Shown here: piece after piece, positions 2,946 through 18,724 of the stretch
How the letters are laid out: every line of letters starts with the position of its first letter
How positions within the stretch are numbered: the first letter of the stretch is position 1
Virus record (IMG/VR): IMGVR_UViG_2734482772_000011
Coordinates: 1 to 18,724 of that record
Source of the DNA: a virus
Taxonomy: Duplodnaviria > Heunggongvirae > Uroviricota > Caudoviricetes
DNA length: 18,724 nucleotides
Reading direction: 5' to 3' (one strand)
Made by a program: the position numbers and the translations under genes
The notes under the pieces: generated by a model
Told to the model about the DNA's origin: nothing
Seen by the model: only the letters and a program-made list of their open reading frames with translations
Database searches by the model: none

Positions 2946-3021
2946 TGGTGCTGGTTAACGGACTTGAACCGCTACCCATTCGCTTACAAGGCGACTGCTC
3001 TACCATTGGAGCTAAACCAGC
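2946..3021 (-). tRNA. tRNA-Thr (anticodon UGU), CCA encoded
   Basis: Hand-folded: acceptor GCTGGTT/AACCAGC (7 perfect bp), D-stem GCTC/GAGC, anticodon loop CTTGTAA, T-arm AGCGG-TTCAAGT-CCGTT, discriminator A, 3' CCA; 76 nt. Confidence 0.7.
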
Positions 3022-3026
3022 ATGTT

Positions 3027-3101
3027 TGGCGGGACAGCGTGGGCTCGAACCACGATAAGAAGGTTAACAGCCTTCCGTAATGACCTTTATACGACTGACC
3101 C
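3027..3101 (-). tRNA. tRNA-Asn-like (anticodon GUU), CCA encoded; slightly atypical
   Basis: Hand-folded: T-arm CGTGG-TTCGAGC-CCACG, anticodon stem GAAGG/CCTTC with loop CTGTTAA (same loop as E. coli tRNA-Asn by recall), acceptor GGGTCAG/CTGTCCC with one T:T mismatch, short D-stem; 75 nt. Confidence 0.55.
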
Positions 3102-3192
3102 AAATAAAAAAAGCCACCGTTGCAACTTAAGAGTCACTAACGGCATCTTATGCCAATAGTGTTGCTCATTTGCTCAATGATGTCAACACGTT
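3102..3192 (-). promoter_or_regulatory. late promoter region (pR-prime-like) downstream of Q
   Basis: Consensus -35 hexamer TTGACA on - strand (plus coords 3186-3181) right after the Q stop; no convincing -10 resolved by eye; position matches lambda pR-prime/qut. Confidence 0.3.
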
Positions 3193-3681
3193 CTATGCTA
3201 CATGTTTAATTTTCTCTACACGTTTCCGATTTTTAAACGCACTATCCAGAACCGGGTAAATCATAAACAACGAGGCATTAAGGATTTCGTCAACTTCCCG
3301 TCGACAGGTTGCGAGCGACGGTTTTTGAATGCGCCCGCCGCCACGGCATAACATCTTGCGAGGTCTTGCGACGCGATGATAGTAAGATGCAATGGCGTGC
3401 TTGGAAGAGCCATGAGCGTAGTAGCTGAGGAGGATTCCAAAGGCTTTCTTGTCAATGTACATGACGGAATCGACGACCTGAGAAATCAACATTCCATCAT
3501 CATCATTACACATTGGCCTTGTCATAACTCTTCCCGGCTCTACGCTCTCCATGAACTTCGCTATTACGCTGCTCATGCGCTTTTCCAGACGACCTGAATA
3601 AACCCATGCGCCCCACAGTTCAAGCCAGCCATTCAGCCACTCATGCTGTTCTTTGGTGAGGTTTAGTTCTCTTATGCCCAC
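3193..3681 (-). CDS. Q: late-gene antiterminator Q
   Basis: Track ORF 162 aa; Q-family hallmarks (LELWGAWV near N-terminus, Cys/Asp-rich central segment, SYYAHG); located between nin region and S. Confidence 0.8.
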
Positions 3682-4343
3682 GCGCCTTCTCCCTGTACCT
3701 GAATCAATGTGAGATTTCCGCAGAACACTGCCCCAGTATCGATATACATCTGGTTGGCAAATTTGAGTGGTTTCACTGCTGGCGTATGACCAAAGATAAA
3801 CGTGTCCGCGCCTTTAATTTCTTTAACGATCCCGTCTTGTGAGTTGCTGATTCGTTCGCGGTTCCAGATTACCTGCTGATGATCAACTGGCTTTCCAAAT
3901 TCGTATTCGTCACAAGGATAATCGGCGTGGCAGATGACATATTTTTTACCTTTGCTCACCAGTTCGATGATTAACGGAAGTTCTTCTGCTTTATGGGCAA
4001 GAGCTTTAGCCAGAATTTCTTTGTCGTAATCGAGATTAAAGAACCAGACACCGCCATTAAGCAGCCAGTGATTGACGTTTCCACGCTCTGATAAGCCATC
4101 AATCATCATGTGCTCATGGTTTCCACGTACAGCTCTGAACCAGGGGAATGTGATTAATTCCAGGCATTCAACGTTCTCTGCACCACGATCAACCAAATCG
4201 CCCACCGAGATAAGCAGGTCTTTTTTGTTGTCGAATCCAATCGTATCCAGTTTGTTCATCAGGTTCGTGTAGCATCCGTGCAGATCGCCAACTACCCAAA
4301 TATTTCGGTATTTGCTGCCATCAATTCTTTCGTAGATATTCAT
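3672..4343 (-). CDS. ninI: Ser/Thr protein phosphatase (lambda NinI/Orf221 type)
   Basis: Track ORF 223 aa; metallophosphatase motifs GDLHG, GDLVDRG, GNHE; position after ninG as in lambda. Confidence 0.9.
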
Positions 4344-4951
4344 GCAGCCTCACTTCTGCTGTTTCGCAGTTTTTTAAGTTTCTGTTGATACTCCGCCTTG
4401 ATGGCCCTGCACTCTTCGACAGTCCAGCGATGGCGGTTATGGTTTGATTCGATTTCGTCTACTGCTTCCTGCCCGATGCGGTTAATCAGTTCGACGCGAT
4501 ACGGAACGAGATTTCCGCTTTTATGTTGGTTGCACACCACGCATTGCTTGTGAATATTGCGTTCATCAAATCGGAGTTGAGGCGCCGCAGCAGTTGTCCG
4601 GTAATGCCCGGCATCCCACTGAGCAGACGTGAGCGTTCCGCACGAGATACATGGTAAGTCGCGGTCTCTTTCTCTGATGAAGGCGTTTACGGCTTGTTGG
4701 GCTTGTTTAATCCAGTAACTGCGGGGCTTTAAGGCGAGTTTTCGAATCTTAAGTTTATCTTTCTGTTTCTGCTCCTCTCGTCGTCGTTTCTTCTCTGCTG
4801 CCTTTTCCGCTTTTTCGCGTTCTTTGCTTCGTCGTTCGAGTGCTATCTTGGTTCCACACTCTGGAGAGCACCACCACTGATTGGCGAATGCAGGGTGAAA
4901 CCATTCCCGACATTCATCGTTTTTACATCGTCTTCGCGCTGGTTTAGCCAT
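4340..4951 (-). CDS. ninG: NinG (Rap) recombination protein
   Basis: Track ORF 203 aa; Cys-rich N-terminus ([12 protein letters not shown]...WWCSPECG) and lysine/glutamate-rich stretch typical of lambda NinG by recall. Confidence 0.9.
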
Positions 4952-5004
4952 CGTCTTCTTCCTCGTGCATCGAGCTATTCGGATCGCTCATCAGTTCTGC
5001 ACAG

Positions 5005-5511
5005 TTATGGTCTGCCATGGTTTTCATGAAAACCCAGTTCTTTTTCTGCCCTCTTCCTTTCTGCAATAGCGTCAATGATGCTAGCAAATATTCCAAGATA
5101 TTTGGTGCGCCCATCTACGCATATATTCGCAATCCACTTGCATCTCTCTTTATTGAAATACACTCCAGTCACTCCTGACGAATTGGTTATTTTTCTCTTT
5201 TGGTTCTGTGCATTCTGTTGGTGTGTAACCAATCGAAGATTAGATAGCCTATTATCTGACCTTACTCCATTTATATGATCAATTTTATACCCTAATGGAA
5301 TCTCACCATTATTTATCATCCATATAACGTGGTGAGCATAAGTAATTACACCATCGATAGTTAACATCCTATAACCATCACTCCTAATGTAACCAGCAAC
5401 ACTGCCAACCTTAACATTATTAGAAGGAGACACTTTCCATCTAAGTACACCTAAAACATCATCATATGATAATTTATTTCTTAATTCGTCTATGTTGCTT
5501 ATATTTCTCAT
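5005..5511 (-). CDS. HNH homing endonuclease with AP2-like DNA-binding domain
   Basis: Track ORF 168 aa; HNH_3-like segment (YKIDHINGVRSDNRLSNLRLVTHQQN) followed by AP2-like segment (SGVTGVYFNKERCKWIANICVDGRTKYLGIF); AT-rich by eye relative to flanking nin genes. Confidence 0.8.
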   Translation of the reverse strand: MRNISNIDELRNKLSYDDVLGVLRWKVSPSNNVKVGSVAGYIRSDGYRMLTIDGVITYAHHVIWMINNGEIPLGYKIDHINGVRSDNRLSNLRLVTHQQNAQNQKRKITNSSGVTGVYFNKERCKWIANICVDGRTKYLGIFASIIDAIAERKRAEKELGFHENHGRP

Positions 5512-5653
5512 TATGTTCCACCATATTTAAGCATTCATATATACAACGCTCACACACATGAACTTCCAGCACATGCAGCTTCTGACCGCAGTTAGCGCAC
5601 GTTAAAGCTCGCTCGACACTTCCTTGTTCGTAACTTCGATTTTGGTCAATCAC
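5474..5653 (-). CDS. ninF: NinF-like ORF with altered C-terminus (remnant at the junction with the HNH insert)
   Basis: Hand-translated, not in track: GTG at 5653-5651 overlaps ninE stop (GTGA); reads [59 protein letters not shown]; core [24 protein letters not shown] matches lambda NinF by recall; 3' end overlaps the HNH start by 38 nt. Confidence 0.45.
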
Positions 5654-5832
5654 CTTGTTTTCCTCGCACGTTCTCTAAGCCACCGGATATCCCACAGGTG
5701 AGCCGTGTAGTTGAAGGTTTTTACGTCAGATTCTTTTGGGATTGGCTTGCGTTTATTTCTGGAGCGTTTCGTTGGAAGGTATTTGCAGTTTTCGCAGATT
5801 ATGTCGGTGATACTTCGTCGCTGTCTCGCCAC
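5650..5832 (-). CDS. ninE: NinE
   Basis: Track ORF 60 aa, [23 protein letters not shown]... matches lambda NinE by recall. Confidence 0.9.
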
Positions 5833-5972
5833 ACGTCCTCCTTTTCCTGCGGTAGTGGTAACACCCCTGTTGGTGTTCTTTCACATCGGAGACACCATCG
5901 ATTCCAGTAAGGTTGATTTGGTCGGAAGCGGTTATCTTCTTTGCATTCACCGCACCGATAACATCGCATCAT
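5799..5972 (-). CDS. ninD: NinD (small Cys-rich protein)
   Basis: Within track ORF 5799..6032; start taken at [11 protein letters not shown] (ATG 5972-5970) which overlaps ninB stop as ATGA; Cys-x2-Cys pairs. Confidence 0.7.
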
Positions 5973-6409
5973 GCTGCCCGATCTCCCCATCTCGCTTTCC
6001 ACTCCAGAGCCAGTCGCGCTTCGTCTGACCACTTAACGCCACGCTCTGTACCGAATGCCTGTATAAGCTCTAATAGCTCCGCAAATTCGCTTACACGCAT
6101 CCTGCTGGTTGACTGGCCTATTACCACAAAGCCATTCCCGGCAAGGTTAGGAACAACGTCCTGCTGCTTTAATGCTGCGGTAAACACACACTTCCAGCTT
6201 TCTGCATCCAGCCAGCGACCATGCCATTCAACCTGACGAGAGACGTCACCAAGGCAAGCCCAAAGCTTTCGGTTTTGGTCTAAGCTGCGGTTGCGTTCCT
6301 GAATGGTTACTACGATTGGTTTGGTTGGGTCTGGAAGAATTTGCTGTACTGCGTGAATAGCGTTTTGCTGATGTGCTGGAGATCGAATTTCAAAGGTTAG
6401 TTTTTTCAT
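5969..6409 (-). CDS. ninB: NinB (Orf-family recombination mediator)
   Basis: Track ORF; start taken at [21 protein letters not shown] (ATG 6409-6407) with SD GAGGGA 5 nt upstream; matches lambda NinB by recall. Confidence 0.9.
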
Positions 6410-6422
6410 GACTTCCCTCTCC

Positions 6423-6457
6423 CCCAAATAAAAAGGCCTGCGATTACCAGCAGGCCT
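6423..6457 (-). terminator. intrinsic terminator between helicase and ninB (tR2 analog)
   Basis: 8-bp perfect stem AGGCCTGC/GCAGGCCT at 6434-6457, followed on the - strand by UUUUUAUUU. Confidence 0.6.
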
Positions 6458-6485: not shown

Positions 6486-7922
6486 TCAGAATCCTCCTTT
6501 CTTCTTGGACTGCGGTTCCTCGCGTTCACGTCGGCGCATTTCAGCAGACTGTTGGTCTGTGTCATAAATAGCGCCATTTGCCTGAATGCAATACACCGTG
6601 CCGGTATTGCCATGACGATTGAGACGAAGGATTAGTTCAGTTTCACCAGGTGGAACACTGTCATCAAAAGCGCCTTCACGATGGATCCCGACCCAATAAT
6701 CGCAATCCTGTTCAATCTGCCCTGTATCTCGTGAGTCACTTGGTAATGGGCGTTTATTGGTTCTGCTTTCCAGTGCGCGGTTAAGCTGCGTCAGAAGCAC
6801 AACAACGCAATCAAGCTCTTTGGCAAGGTTCTTCAGTCCTTTGGTGATCATGCCGTAAGCAAGGTCGTTGCGATCGGCCTTCTCAGCGGTCATTAGTGTC
6901 AGGTAATCGACCAGAATCATGCCAACACATCCTTTTTCTCGCTTGATTCGACGGCTTTCGCTGACGATTTGAGCCAGAGATAATCCCGGCGTGTCGTCGA
7001 TGTAAAGCAGGTCTATTTCACTCAAGCGATTGGCTGTTTCTATCGCCCTGTTGAAGTCACCATCGTAATCACCCTGATAGCCGTCATCGGCGTCATTTGT
7101 CGCCGGAAGGTAAAAAATATTCGGGTTAACACCAGACTTCTGCCCTACCAGTTTTTCCAGTATCTGATCACCTGGCATTTCAAGGCTGAACATCAATGCG
7201 GGCTTTTTCTCATGCACTGCGCAATTGATTGCCATCTGGCTGTATAGCGTCGTTTTCCCCATCTTAGGGCGAGCGCCAATGACAAACAGAGAGCCTTTCA
7301 CCAGACCTTTCGGTGACAGCATCCTGTCCAGCGATGGGATCCCTGTGCTCATTCCCCGTTGTTCGCCTGACGGGTCAAATCGCTTCTCAAGGTCGCTAAC
7401 CCAGTCTTCCATGACCTCACCAAATGAGCGAAGGCCGCGACGCGATCCGGTTTTTGCATGGTCTGTCAGTTGCGTGAAAATCGACTGAATAGCTTCGTAC
7501 TTCTGCGTTGCAGTCATTCCGTTGCGGGAATAGAGCAATTCCGTCGCTTCAGTCATGCGGTTGATGGCGTAGCGTTCCATTGCGGTTTCGCGAACCTGCA
7601 TTGCATAAGCAACGATGTTTGCTGCGCTTGGCGTGTTCTTTGCGATCTCAGCGATATAAGCAAAACCGCCAACAGACGCCGTTAACGATTTACGCTCCAG
7701 TTCATCGAAAAGCGTCAGGCCATCTACTGGCTTTTGCTCACGGTGCATTCTGGTTATTTCTTCGAAAATGATTTTGTGTGGCCGGCTGTAAAATGAATCA
7801 GGCTTCAGCATCGCCAGAACCTTCTGGACGCGCTCACTGCTGTCATCATCCAGAAGCAATCCACCAATCACCGCCTGCTCTGCCTCGATGCTATGGGGCG
7901 GCGCATAAAAATTATCGGTCAT
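6486..7922 (-). CDS. replicative DNA helicase (DnaB family, P22 gene 12 type)
   Basis: Track ORF; Walker A GARPKMGKT, DnaB-like N-terminal segment SIEAEQAVIGGLLLD; ATG at 7922-7920 with SD GAGGGTG preferred over track GTG at 7937. Confidence 0.9.
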   Translation of the reverse strand: MTDNFYAPPHSIEAEQAVIGGLLLDDDSSERVQKVLAMLKPDSFYSRPHKIIFEEITRMHREQKPVDGLTLFDELERKSLTASVGGFAYIAEIAKNTPSAANIVAYAMQVRETAMERYAINRMTEATELLYSRNGMTATQKYEAIQSIFTQLTDHAKTGSRRGLRSFGEVMEDWVSDLEKRFDPSGEQRGMSTGIPSLDRMLSPKGLVKGSLFVIGARPKMGKTTLYSQMAINCAVHEKKPALMFSLEMPGDQILEKLVGQKSGVNPNIFYLPATNDADDGYQGDYDGDFNRAIETANRLSEIDLLYIDDTPGLSLAQIVSESRRIKREKGCVGMILVDYLTLMTAEKADRNDLAYGMITKGLKNLAKELDCVVVLLTQLNRALESRTNKRPLPSDSRDTGQIEQDCDYWVGIHREGAFDDSVPPGETELILRLNRHGNTGTVYCIQANGAIYDTDQQSAEMRRREREEPQSKKKGGF

Positions 7923-8811
7923 CGTGTTCACCCTCACGAACTTTCAGGTAGGTATTATCGTTAAGCAGGAAATCAAATCCCTTTTTGTGCCAGACAGTTC
8001 CGCGTTGATGGTTTGGACGCTCTTCGAACATCCATCGGCAATTTTCGCCTACGTAGCTCAAATAATTTCTCCAGTCCTGCATCGTGAACCCATGCCCGTC
8101 AAGCTGGCGGGTTATCACTCCGGCTTTGCGCCAGAACGTTCGGATCTGGTTTTTACGCTTGTCATTCAGTGCGCGGATTCTTGGAGCTTCAGGAAGGATT
8201 TCGTGGTAAGCATCGACAACATCCTGACAGCTGACGGAAGGTTTTTTCTTGTCAGACTTTTTGTCTGCTGTGGCACTCTCTAATACGTCAGTATTAGAGA
8301 TAATATTATTATATTCTTTATCTGTGGTAATTTGCTGGTAATCTGCTGGTACAGCATTGCTTACAGGCATTGGTATTGCTGGCTTTGAGGTGGTAATTTG
8401 CTGGTAATCTGCTGGTACAAAATTTGACTGATAATCGTCATATTTCTCTACTGAGAAAACTGAGAATTTACCGTGTGAAACCCAGTCAATCATGCCGAGT
8501 TTTTTGAACTTTCTAAGCAGGTACTGAACGCGATCTGGTTTGAGTCCTGTTTCAAACGCCAGAGAGTTTCTACCGCCAAGTAGCTTCCCTCTGCCTACCA
8601 GAATTTCTCCTGCGTCAGTCATTACATACTCAGGCGTATGCTTTGCTTTGAGGATTAAGTGAACCCACAGATGCGCTGCTTCTGCATCCTTGTAAAACGG
8701 CACATCCATAATTTTACGGTGCAGCAAGGCATACCCCTTACCGCTGCTTTGATGCGGTTGTTGTAGCCTTCTGGCCTCTCTGGCTTCGGCTAGATTAGAT
8801 ATGTTACTCAT
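7912..8811 (-). CDS. replication initiation protein (O-like)
   Basis: Track ORF 299 aa directly upstream of the helicase, downstream of cII; contains tandem peptide repeat [10 protein letters not shown] encoded by the iteron array, as in lambda O. Confidence 0.75.
8324..8419. repeat. origin-like iteron array inside the O-like gene, flanked by an AT-rich tract (8281-8320)
   Basis: Exact 30-bp direct repeat GTGGTAATTTGCTGGTAATCTGCTGGTACA at 8324-8353 and 8390-8419; each holds two TGCTGGTA sub-repeats 11 bp apart. Confidence 0.6.
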
Positions 8812-17454: not shown

Positions 17455-17673
17455 ATGTACTTGACACTTCAGGAGTGGAACGCTCGCCAGCGACGCCCAA
17501 GAAGCCTTGAAACAGTTCGTCGATGGGTGCGCGAATGCAGGATATTCCCTCCTCCGGTTAAGGATGGAAGAGAGTATCTGTTCCACGAATCAGCGGTAAA
17601 GGTTGACTTAAATCGACCAGTAACAGGTAGCCTTTTGAAGAGGATCAGAAATGGGAAGAAGGCGAAGTCATGA
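17455..17673 (+). CDS. xis: excisionase Xis
   Basis: Within track ORF 17365..17673; from ATG 17455 reads MYLTLQEWNARQRRPRSLETVRRWVRECRIFPPPVKDGREYLF..., matching lambda Xis by recall; 3' end overlaps int start. Confidence 0.9.
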   Translation: MYLTLQEWNARQRRPRSLETVRRWVRECRIFPPPVKDGREYLFHESAVKVDLNRPVTGSLLKRIRNGKKAKS

Positions 17674-18724
17674 GCGCCGGGATTTACCCCCTAACCTTTA
17701 TATAAGAAACAATGGATATTACTGCTACAGGGACCCAAGGACGGGTAAAGAGTTTGGATTAGGCCGAGACAGGAGGATAGCAATCACTGAAGCAATACAG
17801 GCCAATATTGAGTTACTCTCAGACAGCGGACGCAAATCACTAATAGACAGAATTAAAGGCGGTGACGCAATCACTCTTCATGTGTGGCTTGACCGATATG
17901 AAACAATCCTCACCGAAAGGGGGATCAGGCCGAAAACTCTACTCGACTACGCCAGCAAAATCAGGGCAATCCGAAGAAAATTGCCGGACAAACCGCTCAC
18001 TGACATATCAACGAAAGAAGTGGCAGCAATGCTAAACACCTACGTAGCAGAAGGTAAAGCAGCTTCCGCAAAATTAATCAGGTCAACCCTTGTTGACGTT
18101 TTTCGTGAAGCAATAGCCGAGGGGCATGTGGCAACGAATCCGGTAACGGCAACCCGTACAGCAAAGTCAGAAGTAAGGCGCTCAAGGCTGACAGCTAATG
18201 AGTATGTCGAGATTTACCATGCAGCCGAACCTCTCCCTATCTGGCTAAGACTGGCGATGGATTTGGCCGTCGTTACAGGGCAGAGAGTCGGCGATTTGTG
18301 CAGAATGAAATGGTCAGACATAAACGACAACCATCTTCACATTGAACAGAGTAAAACAGGGGCTAAACTCGCCATTCCGCTAACGCTAACGATTGACGCG
18401 CTCAATATCTCATTGGCTGATACACTACAGAAATGCAGGGAGGCCAGCAGCAGTGAAACTATAATCGCATCAAAGCATCACGATCCGCTTTCCCCGAAAA
18501 CAGTATCAAAGTATTTTACAAAGGCGAGAAATGCATCTGGACTCTCATTTGATGGAAACCCGCCAACATTCCATGAACTGCGTAGCCTGTCAGCGAGGCT
18601 ATACCGGAACCAGATTGGCGATAAGTTTGCTCAACGTCTTCTCGGGCATAAATCAGATTCAATGGCGGCGCGGTATAGGGACAGCCGTGGACGGGAATGG
18701 GACAAAATTGAAATCGACAAATGA
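17651..18724 (+). CDS. int: tyrosine integrase (lambda Int type)
   Basis: Track ORF 357 aa, MGRRRSHERRDLPPNLYIRNNGYYCYRDPRTGKEFGLGRDRRIAITEAIQANIEL... matches lambda Int by recall; gene ends at the window edge. Confidence 0.95.
   Translation: MGRRRSHERRDLPPNLYIRNNGYYCYRDPRTGKEFGLGRDRRIAITEAIQANIELLSDSGRKSLIDRIKGGDAITLHVWLDRYETILTERGIRPKTLLDYASKIRAIRRKLPDKPLTDISTKEVAAMLNTYVAEGKAASAKLIRSTLVDVFREAIAEGHVATNPVTATRTAKSEVRRSRLTANEYVEIYHAAEPLPIWLRLAMDLAVVTGQRVGDLCRMKWSDINDNHLHIEQSKTGAKLAIPLTLTIDALNISLADTLQKCREASSSETIIASKHHDPLSPKTVSKYFTKARNASGLSFDGNPPTFHELRSLSARLYRNQIGDKFAQRLLGHKSDSMAARYRDSRGREWDKIEIDK

Follow-up and report, generated by a model that had tools for sequence, protein, structure and literature searches.

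Related endonucleases in phage genomes

That free-standing HNH homing endonuclease genes (HEGs) can split phage genes is well established, and the ninF case described here is a well-delimited further example that involves no new system. It is located in a window of 18,724 nucleotides, by which we mean the whole stretch of DNA that was analysed. Among enzymes of solved structure, the closest to the ninF enzyme is I-HmuI of Bacillus phage SPO1 (1u3e), which was found to be the best match both by sequence (a marginal E=0.069) and by fold (E=1.2e-3). I-HmuI nicks one strand. The two enzymes share an HNH core of the form D-H...N...N, a comparable size (168 aa for the ninF enzyme and 174 aa for I-HmuI) and an extended DNA-binding architecture. 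However, they are just 22% identical and I-HmuI ends in a helix-turn-helix whereas the ninF enzyme is predicted to have an AP2-like C-terminal domain. Furthermore, I-HmuI is encoded in a group I intron of a DNA polymerase gene whereas the gene in ninF is free-standing.

The genetic setting resembles that of the T4-type Seg and Mob genes and of the HEG that splits nrdD in Felix O1-like phages (PMC4837284). In each case a stand-alone ORF without an intron lies between or inside phage genes, its presence is polymorphic and the host gene is split and annotated as two pieces. The Seg, Mob and nrdD elements differ in that they occur in virulent phages, usually in essential nucleotide-metabolism genes of which the halves stay functional, whereas the ninF element is carried by a temperate lambdoid prophage and has a tiny dispensable gene as its target. 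The protein also resembles the HNH_3 plus AP2 phage endonucleases (PHROG 99; PF13392 with PF00847), with a match to PHROG 99 at E=3e-70, but its homologs in phage records are less than 60% identical and are located in other genes. The protein itself is already present in public databases under generic names. A literature search for HNH genes in ninF or the nin region found no paper on a ninF-specific HEG.

Gene order of the window

The window is a mosaic lambdoid prophage of the Escherichia type, since its closest phage matches (HK106, HK022 and lambda-like phages) cover only 41-50% of it. The genes of the nin part are all located on the minus strand and are given here in the order of transcription. 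A replication-initiator-like ORF (7912-8811) and the gene for a DnaB-type helicase (6486-7937) are followed by ninB (5969-6427), by ninD (5799-5972; PF17466, E=1.8e-41), which overlaps the end of ninB and the start of ninE, and by ninE (5650-5832; PF05322, E=1.5e-44), which is the upstream neighbour of the split ninF. These are followed by a chimeric ORF of 59 aa, termed NinF' here (5474-5653; NinF PF05810, E=6e-12), by the HNH_3 endonuclease gene of 168 aa (5005-5511; Pfam HNH_3 PF13392, E=1.2e-19) and by ninG, or rap (4340-4951; PF05766, E=5e-91), the start of which overlaps the end of ninF. The gene for a ninI-type phosphatase (3672-4343) is overlapped by ninG and precedes Q (3193-3681). 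An earlier reading of this DNA, made from the sequence alone and referred to below as the sequence-only reading, had noted the absence of ninC and ninH. We observed the same, as ninB lies directly before ninD and ninG overlaps ninI; ninD itself had gone unmentioned in that reading.

Two tRNA genes on the minus strand, tRNA-Thr (TGT) at 2946-3021 and tRNA-Asn (GTT) at 3027-3101, are located between Q and the holin gene and are followed by the lysis genes and a Rha-like gene. The same tRNA pair was also observed in the related prophage L047. An integrase gene (17651-18724) is found at the far end of the window. In addition, a second HNH ORF of 116 aa occupies positions 1-351 on the minus strand (PF01844, E=2.3e-16; PF14279, E=8e-9). 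It had been described previously as a terminase-associated HNH enzyme; the ORF is indeed present and belongs to a different family from the one in ninF. It lies downstream of the Rha-like gene at the window edge, with the terminase outside the window, and a position downstream of a Rha-like gene at such an edge is the usual place for terminase-associated HNH proteins.

An exact insertion that splits ninF

Alignment of the window with lambda and with empty alleles of E. coli prophages, after which the junctions were located by script, delimits an inserted block of 543 nt at 5005-5547 (minus strand). The uninterrupted ninF allele is GTTCACGTGTGTGAGC-ACTG-CTGCGCAGAACTGATG, and the window contains the 543 nt in place of ACTG. 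Comparison with lambda and with hundreds of E. coli prophages shows the insertion to be nucleotide-exact. The block is composed of a 36-nt leader and then the HNH ORF through its TAA stop, where the leader carries the ribosome-binding site of the HNH gene (GGTGGA) together with the start of the new NinF' tail. The GC content of the insert is 35.4% as compared with 49.6% and 48.0% in the 1-kb flanks, and the insert forms the lowest-GC 500-nt bin of the window.

The 5' segment of ninF (5548-5653, minus strand) has a GTG start, consists of 35 codons plus one nucleotide and ends in ...LEVHVCE. A single difference was found between this segment and empty ninF alleles, a synonymous C>T at position -11 relative to the insertion site. 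NinF' is made of NinF residues 1-35 and a 24-aa tail. The coding sequence of this tail is the first 74 nt of the insert, and 38 nt of it (5474-5511) are shared with the HNH ORF. The NinF profile PF05810 (25 positions) matches this ORF over residues 18-42 with 45.7 bits against a cut-off of 27.5. The 3' remnant of ninF, 61 nt in length (4944-5004, minus strand), is located immediately after the HNH stop codon, encodes the authentic 19-aa end of NinF and contains the ATG of ninG together with its ribosome-binding site. This remnant could be read as a 24-aa peptide from an ATG within the 3' end of the HNH gene. When the block is removed and the four nucleotides ACTG are restored, a NinF of 56 aa is obtained that is identical to WP_000567007.1, the product of the empty allele in E. 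coli 14EC007, and the reconstructed DNA differs from that allele by two synonymous changes in 171 nt. Since the native C-terminus has been parted from the 5' ORF by the insert, the gene is a split ninF and not an intact member of the NinF family, in which a full-length protein has 56-58 aa and an acidic C-terminus.

Much of the sequence-only reading was therefore correct. It had described an AT-rich HNH_3 gene between ninE and ninG, and an upstream ORF that keeps the NinF core and has an unrelated C-terminus running 38 nt into the HNH ORF; all of this agrees with the alignment to insert-free lambdoid alleles, which it had proposed as a means of defining the boundaries. It was mistaken in stating that the 3' end of ninF had been replaced, as this end is displaced by 543 nt and retained intact. 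It had also left open whether the gene landed in ninF or next to it, and only the former holds.

A NinF' tail without the endonuclease, which would indicate an intact variant, was looked for in 227 phage records with a NinF match and in a search of 5.8 billion proteins, and none was found in either. In the phage records, all matches to the 59-aa query end at residue 43 or before it. Among the proteins of the large collection, the tail was found only in interrupted forms, and the other high-coverage matches to NinF' are normal NinF proteins or fusions.

The nearest empty allele was observed in E. coli 13KWH46, with two differences in flanks of about 250 nt on the left and 397 nt on the right of the insert. 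Both are synonymous C>T changes, at window positions 5558 (-11) and 5001 (+4), and lie at most 11 nt from the insertion site. They do not occur together in the other 39 copies that we compared (see below); copy L009 also has T at +4. An isogenic pair of empty and occupied prophages over many kilobases was not found, as the best empty allele matches the window over about 650 nt and mosaic joints follow. In the other copies the right junction lies inside an 8-nt palindrome, CTGCGCAG.

We considered whether the ends of the insert mimic the target or derive from a target-site duplication, and rejected both. The sequence GACCATAACTGT matches the target GAGCACTGCTGC at 8 of 12 positions, but 8 of these 12 nt belong to the insert and only 4 of those 8 match, which is the level expected by chance. 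The 3' end of the insert encodes the family-conserved FHENHG motif, occurs in the diverged relative L004 as well, and is therefore HEG sequence and not target.

The annotation of the locus is variable. RefSeq annotates the two halves of ninF as separate 'protein NinF' CDS, while its pipeline (PGAP) flags the endonuclease as an 'incomplete, partial' pseudogene in L002 (4367-4420), L003 (3271-3420) and L016 (3207-3356). Degeneration of the HEG in these genomes was rejected because the flagged copies are 100% or 99.6% identical and have an intact 168-aa ORF, so that the flags are annotation artefacts. Some of the partial HNH copies in GenBank are named 'serine/threonine protein phosphatase, partial'.

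Family, active site and predicted fold of the HNH protein

The protein matches the HNH_3 profile over positions 2-46 of 46 with 70.1 bits against a cut-off of 24.8, and in PHROG 99 its match is annotated as 'HNH endonuclease'. All 61 aligned homologs match HNH_3 as well. The protein comprises an N-terminal beta region, an HNH beta-beta-alpha core at about residues 75-102 and a C-terminal AP2-like unit at about 117-159. Residues D78/H79, N91 and N100 align with D74/H75, N87 and N96 of I-HmuI, which have catalytic and metal-binding roles. D78 and N91 were found to be invariant among the 61 homologs and H79 and N100 to be at least 90% conserved.

An AlphaFold2 model built on the homolog alignment has a mean pLDDT of 90.8 and displays the beta-beta-alpha fold as two strands (75-79 and 92-96) followed by a helix (97-102). 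The top PDB match of this model in Foldseek is I-HmuI, with a probability of 1.00 but an E value of only 1.2e-3, and AP2 domains come next. The AP2-like unit is modelled as three strands (117-120, 125-132 and 135-142) and a helix (145-159). It resembles 3igm, 7et4/7et5, 7wq5 and 1gcc with probabilities of 0.9-1.0 and weak E values of 0.05-0.3, where the match to 7et4/7et5 has an rmsd of 1.7 Å over 53 columns.

The Pfam AP2 profile (PF00847) falls below its threshold in this protein, with 15.4 bits over residues 112-143 against a cut-off of 33.3 (E=0.024). Nevertheless, 34 of the 61 homologs match AP2 (best 3.2e-8) and, taken with the predicted fold, this makes 'HNH plus AP2-like domain' a fair description of the protein. 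The HNH-AP2 type assigned by the sequence-only reading, which had suggested the family search, thus stands for HNH_3 on the protein's own score, whereas for AP2 the support is indirect and comes from the homologs and the predicted fold. On the basis of the HNH_3 domain, the aligned D/H/N residues, the confident model and the fold matches to I-HmuI and AP2 domains, the enzyme looks functional.

Variation among forty copies

Forty copies from RefSeq, GenBank and IMG/VR were studied in detail, 10 of which had been retrieved by exact protein identity. The left and right junctions are identical in all of them. The 543-nt insert with an intact 168-aa ORF is present in 39 of the 40, and the remaining copy (L044) has a one-base insertion. 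The backgrounds are diverse. At least three types of ninF 5' end were observed (the lambda type, the P22 type and a third type), the upstream gene is either ninE or ninX, and at least six unrelated downstream genes occur, which include ninG, a 70-aa ORF followed by ybcO, and an antirepressor gene. The replication modules beside the copies are of the O/P, O/DnaB or primase type. The element is polymorphic for presence and absence at a single nucleotide-exact site between otherwise homologous alleles.

The nucleotide diversity of the insert is 0.0043 as compared with 0.022 in the 72 nt of ninF on one side and 0.019 in the 56 nt on the other. It is thus about five-fold lower, in keeping with an element younger than its flanks, although the value for the insert is somewhat underestimated because 10 of the 40 loci were picked by exact protein identity. 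The same trend was seen in an unbiased survey of E. coli genomes, where the insert is 99.1-100% identical and the insert with its flanks 97.9-98.8%. Common polymorphisms in the flanks were found as near as 33 nt to the junction. Within the ORF, 8 nonsynonymous and 13 synonymous changes segregate.

Distribution of empty and occupied sites

The E. coli survey covered 5,426 complete genomes, and ninF-region DNA was found in 1,707 of them. An uninterrupted site, scored as at least 80% of the reconstructed 264-nt empty site, is present in 921 of the 5,426 genomes, with a best identity of 99.2%. The insert is present in 45, in 44 of these at 99% identity or more, and the occupied share is therefore about 2.6% of the ninF-bearing genomes. 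The E. coli insert copies listed all have a 'protein NinF' annotation on one or both sides. No record of the INPHARED phage collection carries the insert, so that all the copies seen are in prophages or viral contigs; 29 viral contigs of IMG/VR contain it.

Identical copies of the HNH protein have been recorded from at least 1,000 contigs, which belong to E. coli, E. albertii and other Enterobacteriaceae, and the interrupted NinF' has also been recorded from Salmonella enterica. The ninF-specific HNH lineage was seen only in prophages of Escherichia, E. albertii and Salmonella and in viral contigs. No close relatives were found in the GTDB species-representative genomes. About 3,800 phage records contain homologs, all of which are less than 60% identical (best 51.6%) and seated in other genes.

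A relative that is 85% identical and 176 aa in length was observed in L004, a 909-nt metagenomic contig (SRR25288770). The order in this contig is a diverged NinF-like core (...IHVCEKCIY...), the HNH gene, a short diverged ninF-like end (MADPNGQMLEKDDG*) and ybcO. Since this relative occupies the equivalent place, the tie of the HEG lineage to ninF predates the near-identical E. coli copies. L004 also hints at a wider lineage of ninF-associated HEGs.

E. coli 14EC007 (NZ_CP024131.1) has two lambdoid prophages in one chromosome, in one of which ninF is occupied (L016, about 1,752,426-1,753,174) while in the other it is intact (L015, about 3,056,573-3,056,743). These prophages form a natural donor and recipient pair.

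Other endonuclease genes in nin regions

At least four other HNH_3 genes were observed in the nin regions of related E. coli prophages, some of them with AP2 or NUMOD4. They are located at 5053-5577 in L010, at 3081-3683 and 5053-5577 in L011, at 2768-3253 in L012 and at 2374-2940 in L016. The identity among these genes, and between them and the one in ninF, is 27-43%. Each occupies a site of its own, namely between ybcO and rusA, between ninB and ninE, upstream of ninB, or fused to the start of ninG. The last of these is joined to the first nine codons of ninG (MAKPARRRC...). Free-standing endonuclease genes appear to have a hotspot in the nin region.

Proposed homing and its alternatives

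We propose that the block is a free-standing HEG of the HNH_3/AP2-like class with its home site in the middle of ninF, between codons 35 and 38, and we give this reading a probability of about 0.72. It is built on observed features, which are the exact and polymorphic insertion, the use of one site in many backgrounds, the low diversity of the insert, the intact ORF with its conserved active site and the foreign composition. The sequence-only reading had likewise invoked a free-standing homing endonuclease that landed in ninF; comparison of alleles confirms the insertion, and the sequence features point to homing as its probable cause. In lambda, ninF is dispensable (PMC10695390), and a disruptive insertion can therefore be tolerated at little cost to the phage.

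The proposed cycle would start after induction or infection, when the HEG would be transcribed with the delayed-early pR/nin operon. A search for promoters and terminators inside the insert found none, and one promoter-like site was seen in ninE, fewer than in shuffled sequences. Without a promoter or terminator of its own, the insert is presumably transcribed when the polymerase reads through the nin operon. The recognition sequence of the enzyme would be the uninterrupted one around GTGTGTGAGC-ACTG-CTGCGCAGAACTG, for which the AP2-like domain may supply the specificity. The target during lytic growth would be a lambdoid genome with an empty ninF, either co-resident or co-infecting, in which the I-HmuI-like HNH core would make a nick or a cut, and recombinational repair from the occupied allele would copy in the HEG together with short flanking tracts. 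The occupied allele would be immune to the enzyme as its two half-sites are 543 nt apart.

The main rival is a single ancient insertion by illegitimate recombination that is now immobile and has been spread passively by the mosaic recombination of lambdoid phages, with a nuclease that no longer homes or has another role. Because lambdoid phages are highly mosaic, such passive spread is conceivable, and ordinary recombination in the flanks could carry one ancient insertion into many phages without any nuclease activity. The nin regions are indeed strongly mosaic, with joints exactly at the start and stop of ninF, and the low occupancy in E. coli would suit this reading. The occurrence of occupied and empty sites in the chromosome of 14EC007 also suits it, as it indicates that conversion is not automatic. 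The nin genes are repressed and silent in lysogens, and this coexistence is therefore compatible with homing too. However, the insert is about five-fold less diverse than the ninF DNA 1-72 nt away and is carried by several ninF haplotypes that differ as near as 33 nt from the junction, which together call for repeated transfer with very short flanks. In addition, an inert relic would not be expected to retain its ORF in all but one of 40 copies, nor to show a surplus of synonymous changes. An ancient passive insertion is harder to square with the diversity contrast and the intact ORFs, and we consider it unlikely.

It was also considered that the nuclease persists chiefly because it is a weapon of the phage or otherwise of use to it, where it would cut the ninF of rivals and exclude their markers or stimulate recombination in the nin region, the spread of the HEG itself being a by-product. 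The T4 enzymes Seg and Mob are known to exclude the markers of rivals in this way. Such a role is favoured by the four or more further HNH_3 genes that related nin regions carry elsewhere and by the position of the insert among the recombination genes ninB and ninG, and HEGs of other phages are enriched at the boundaries of genetic exchange (PMC10448857). However, this role is compatible with a homing mechanism and is no true alternative to it, and the low frequency of the insert speaks against a strong advantage. As the main reason for the persistence of the gene it appears quite improbable.

The upstream ORF might instead be an intact natural variant of NinF with the HNH gene merely as its neighbour, and NinF' does keep the CxxC...CxxC pattern (C19, C22, C34 and C37) because the insert supplies a Cys codon. 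This is contradicted by the tail, the coding sequence of which belongs to the insert and runs into the HNH ORF, by the finding that no NinF with that tail lacks the insert and by the authentic 3' end still present downstream, and we regard it as highly improbable. A group I or II intron or an intein, with ninF restored by splicing, was suggested by the frequent encoding of HNH_3 and I-HmuI-like enzymes in group I introns and was rejected as next to impossible, since Rfam gave no match at the gathering threshold or at E<=1 on either strand of 4800-5800, the ORF fills 507 of the 543 nt and leaves just 36 nt outside it, and the HNH frame, which has its own start and stop, differs from the ninF frame with a stop in between.

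Meaning for lambdoid phages

Under the homing explanation, the locus provides a cleanly delimited natural candidate homing site in ninF, around GTGTGTGAGC/ACTG/CTGCGCAGAACTG, for an HNH/AP2-like enzyme. Lambdoid phages are the best-studied group of phages, and empty and occupied alleles are at hand even within one E. coli strain. As both alleles are readily available, homing is directly testable in lambda genetics. The finding also calls for a correction of the databases, since several RefSeq genomes present the intact gene as a partial pseudogene and the halves of ninF appear as separate 'NinF' proteins.

On a wider and much more tentative view, the ninF element might belong to a guild of at least five HNH_3/AP2-like HEGs with sites in ninF, at the start of ninG, between ybcO and rusA, between ninB and ninE, and upstream of ninB. 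The breaks made by this guild at prophage co-induction or superinfection could then be a main motor of the mosaicism of lambdoid phages at gene boundaries and of marker exclusion, which would also act between co-resident prophages; we consider this doubtful. The ninF element adds to the evidence that the nin regions of temperate phages collect selfish nucleases, which may contribute to mosaic recombination.
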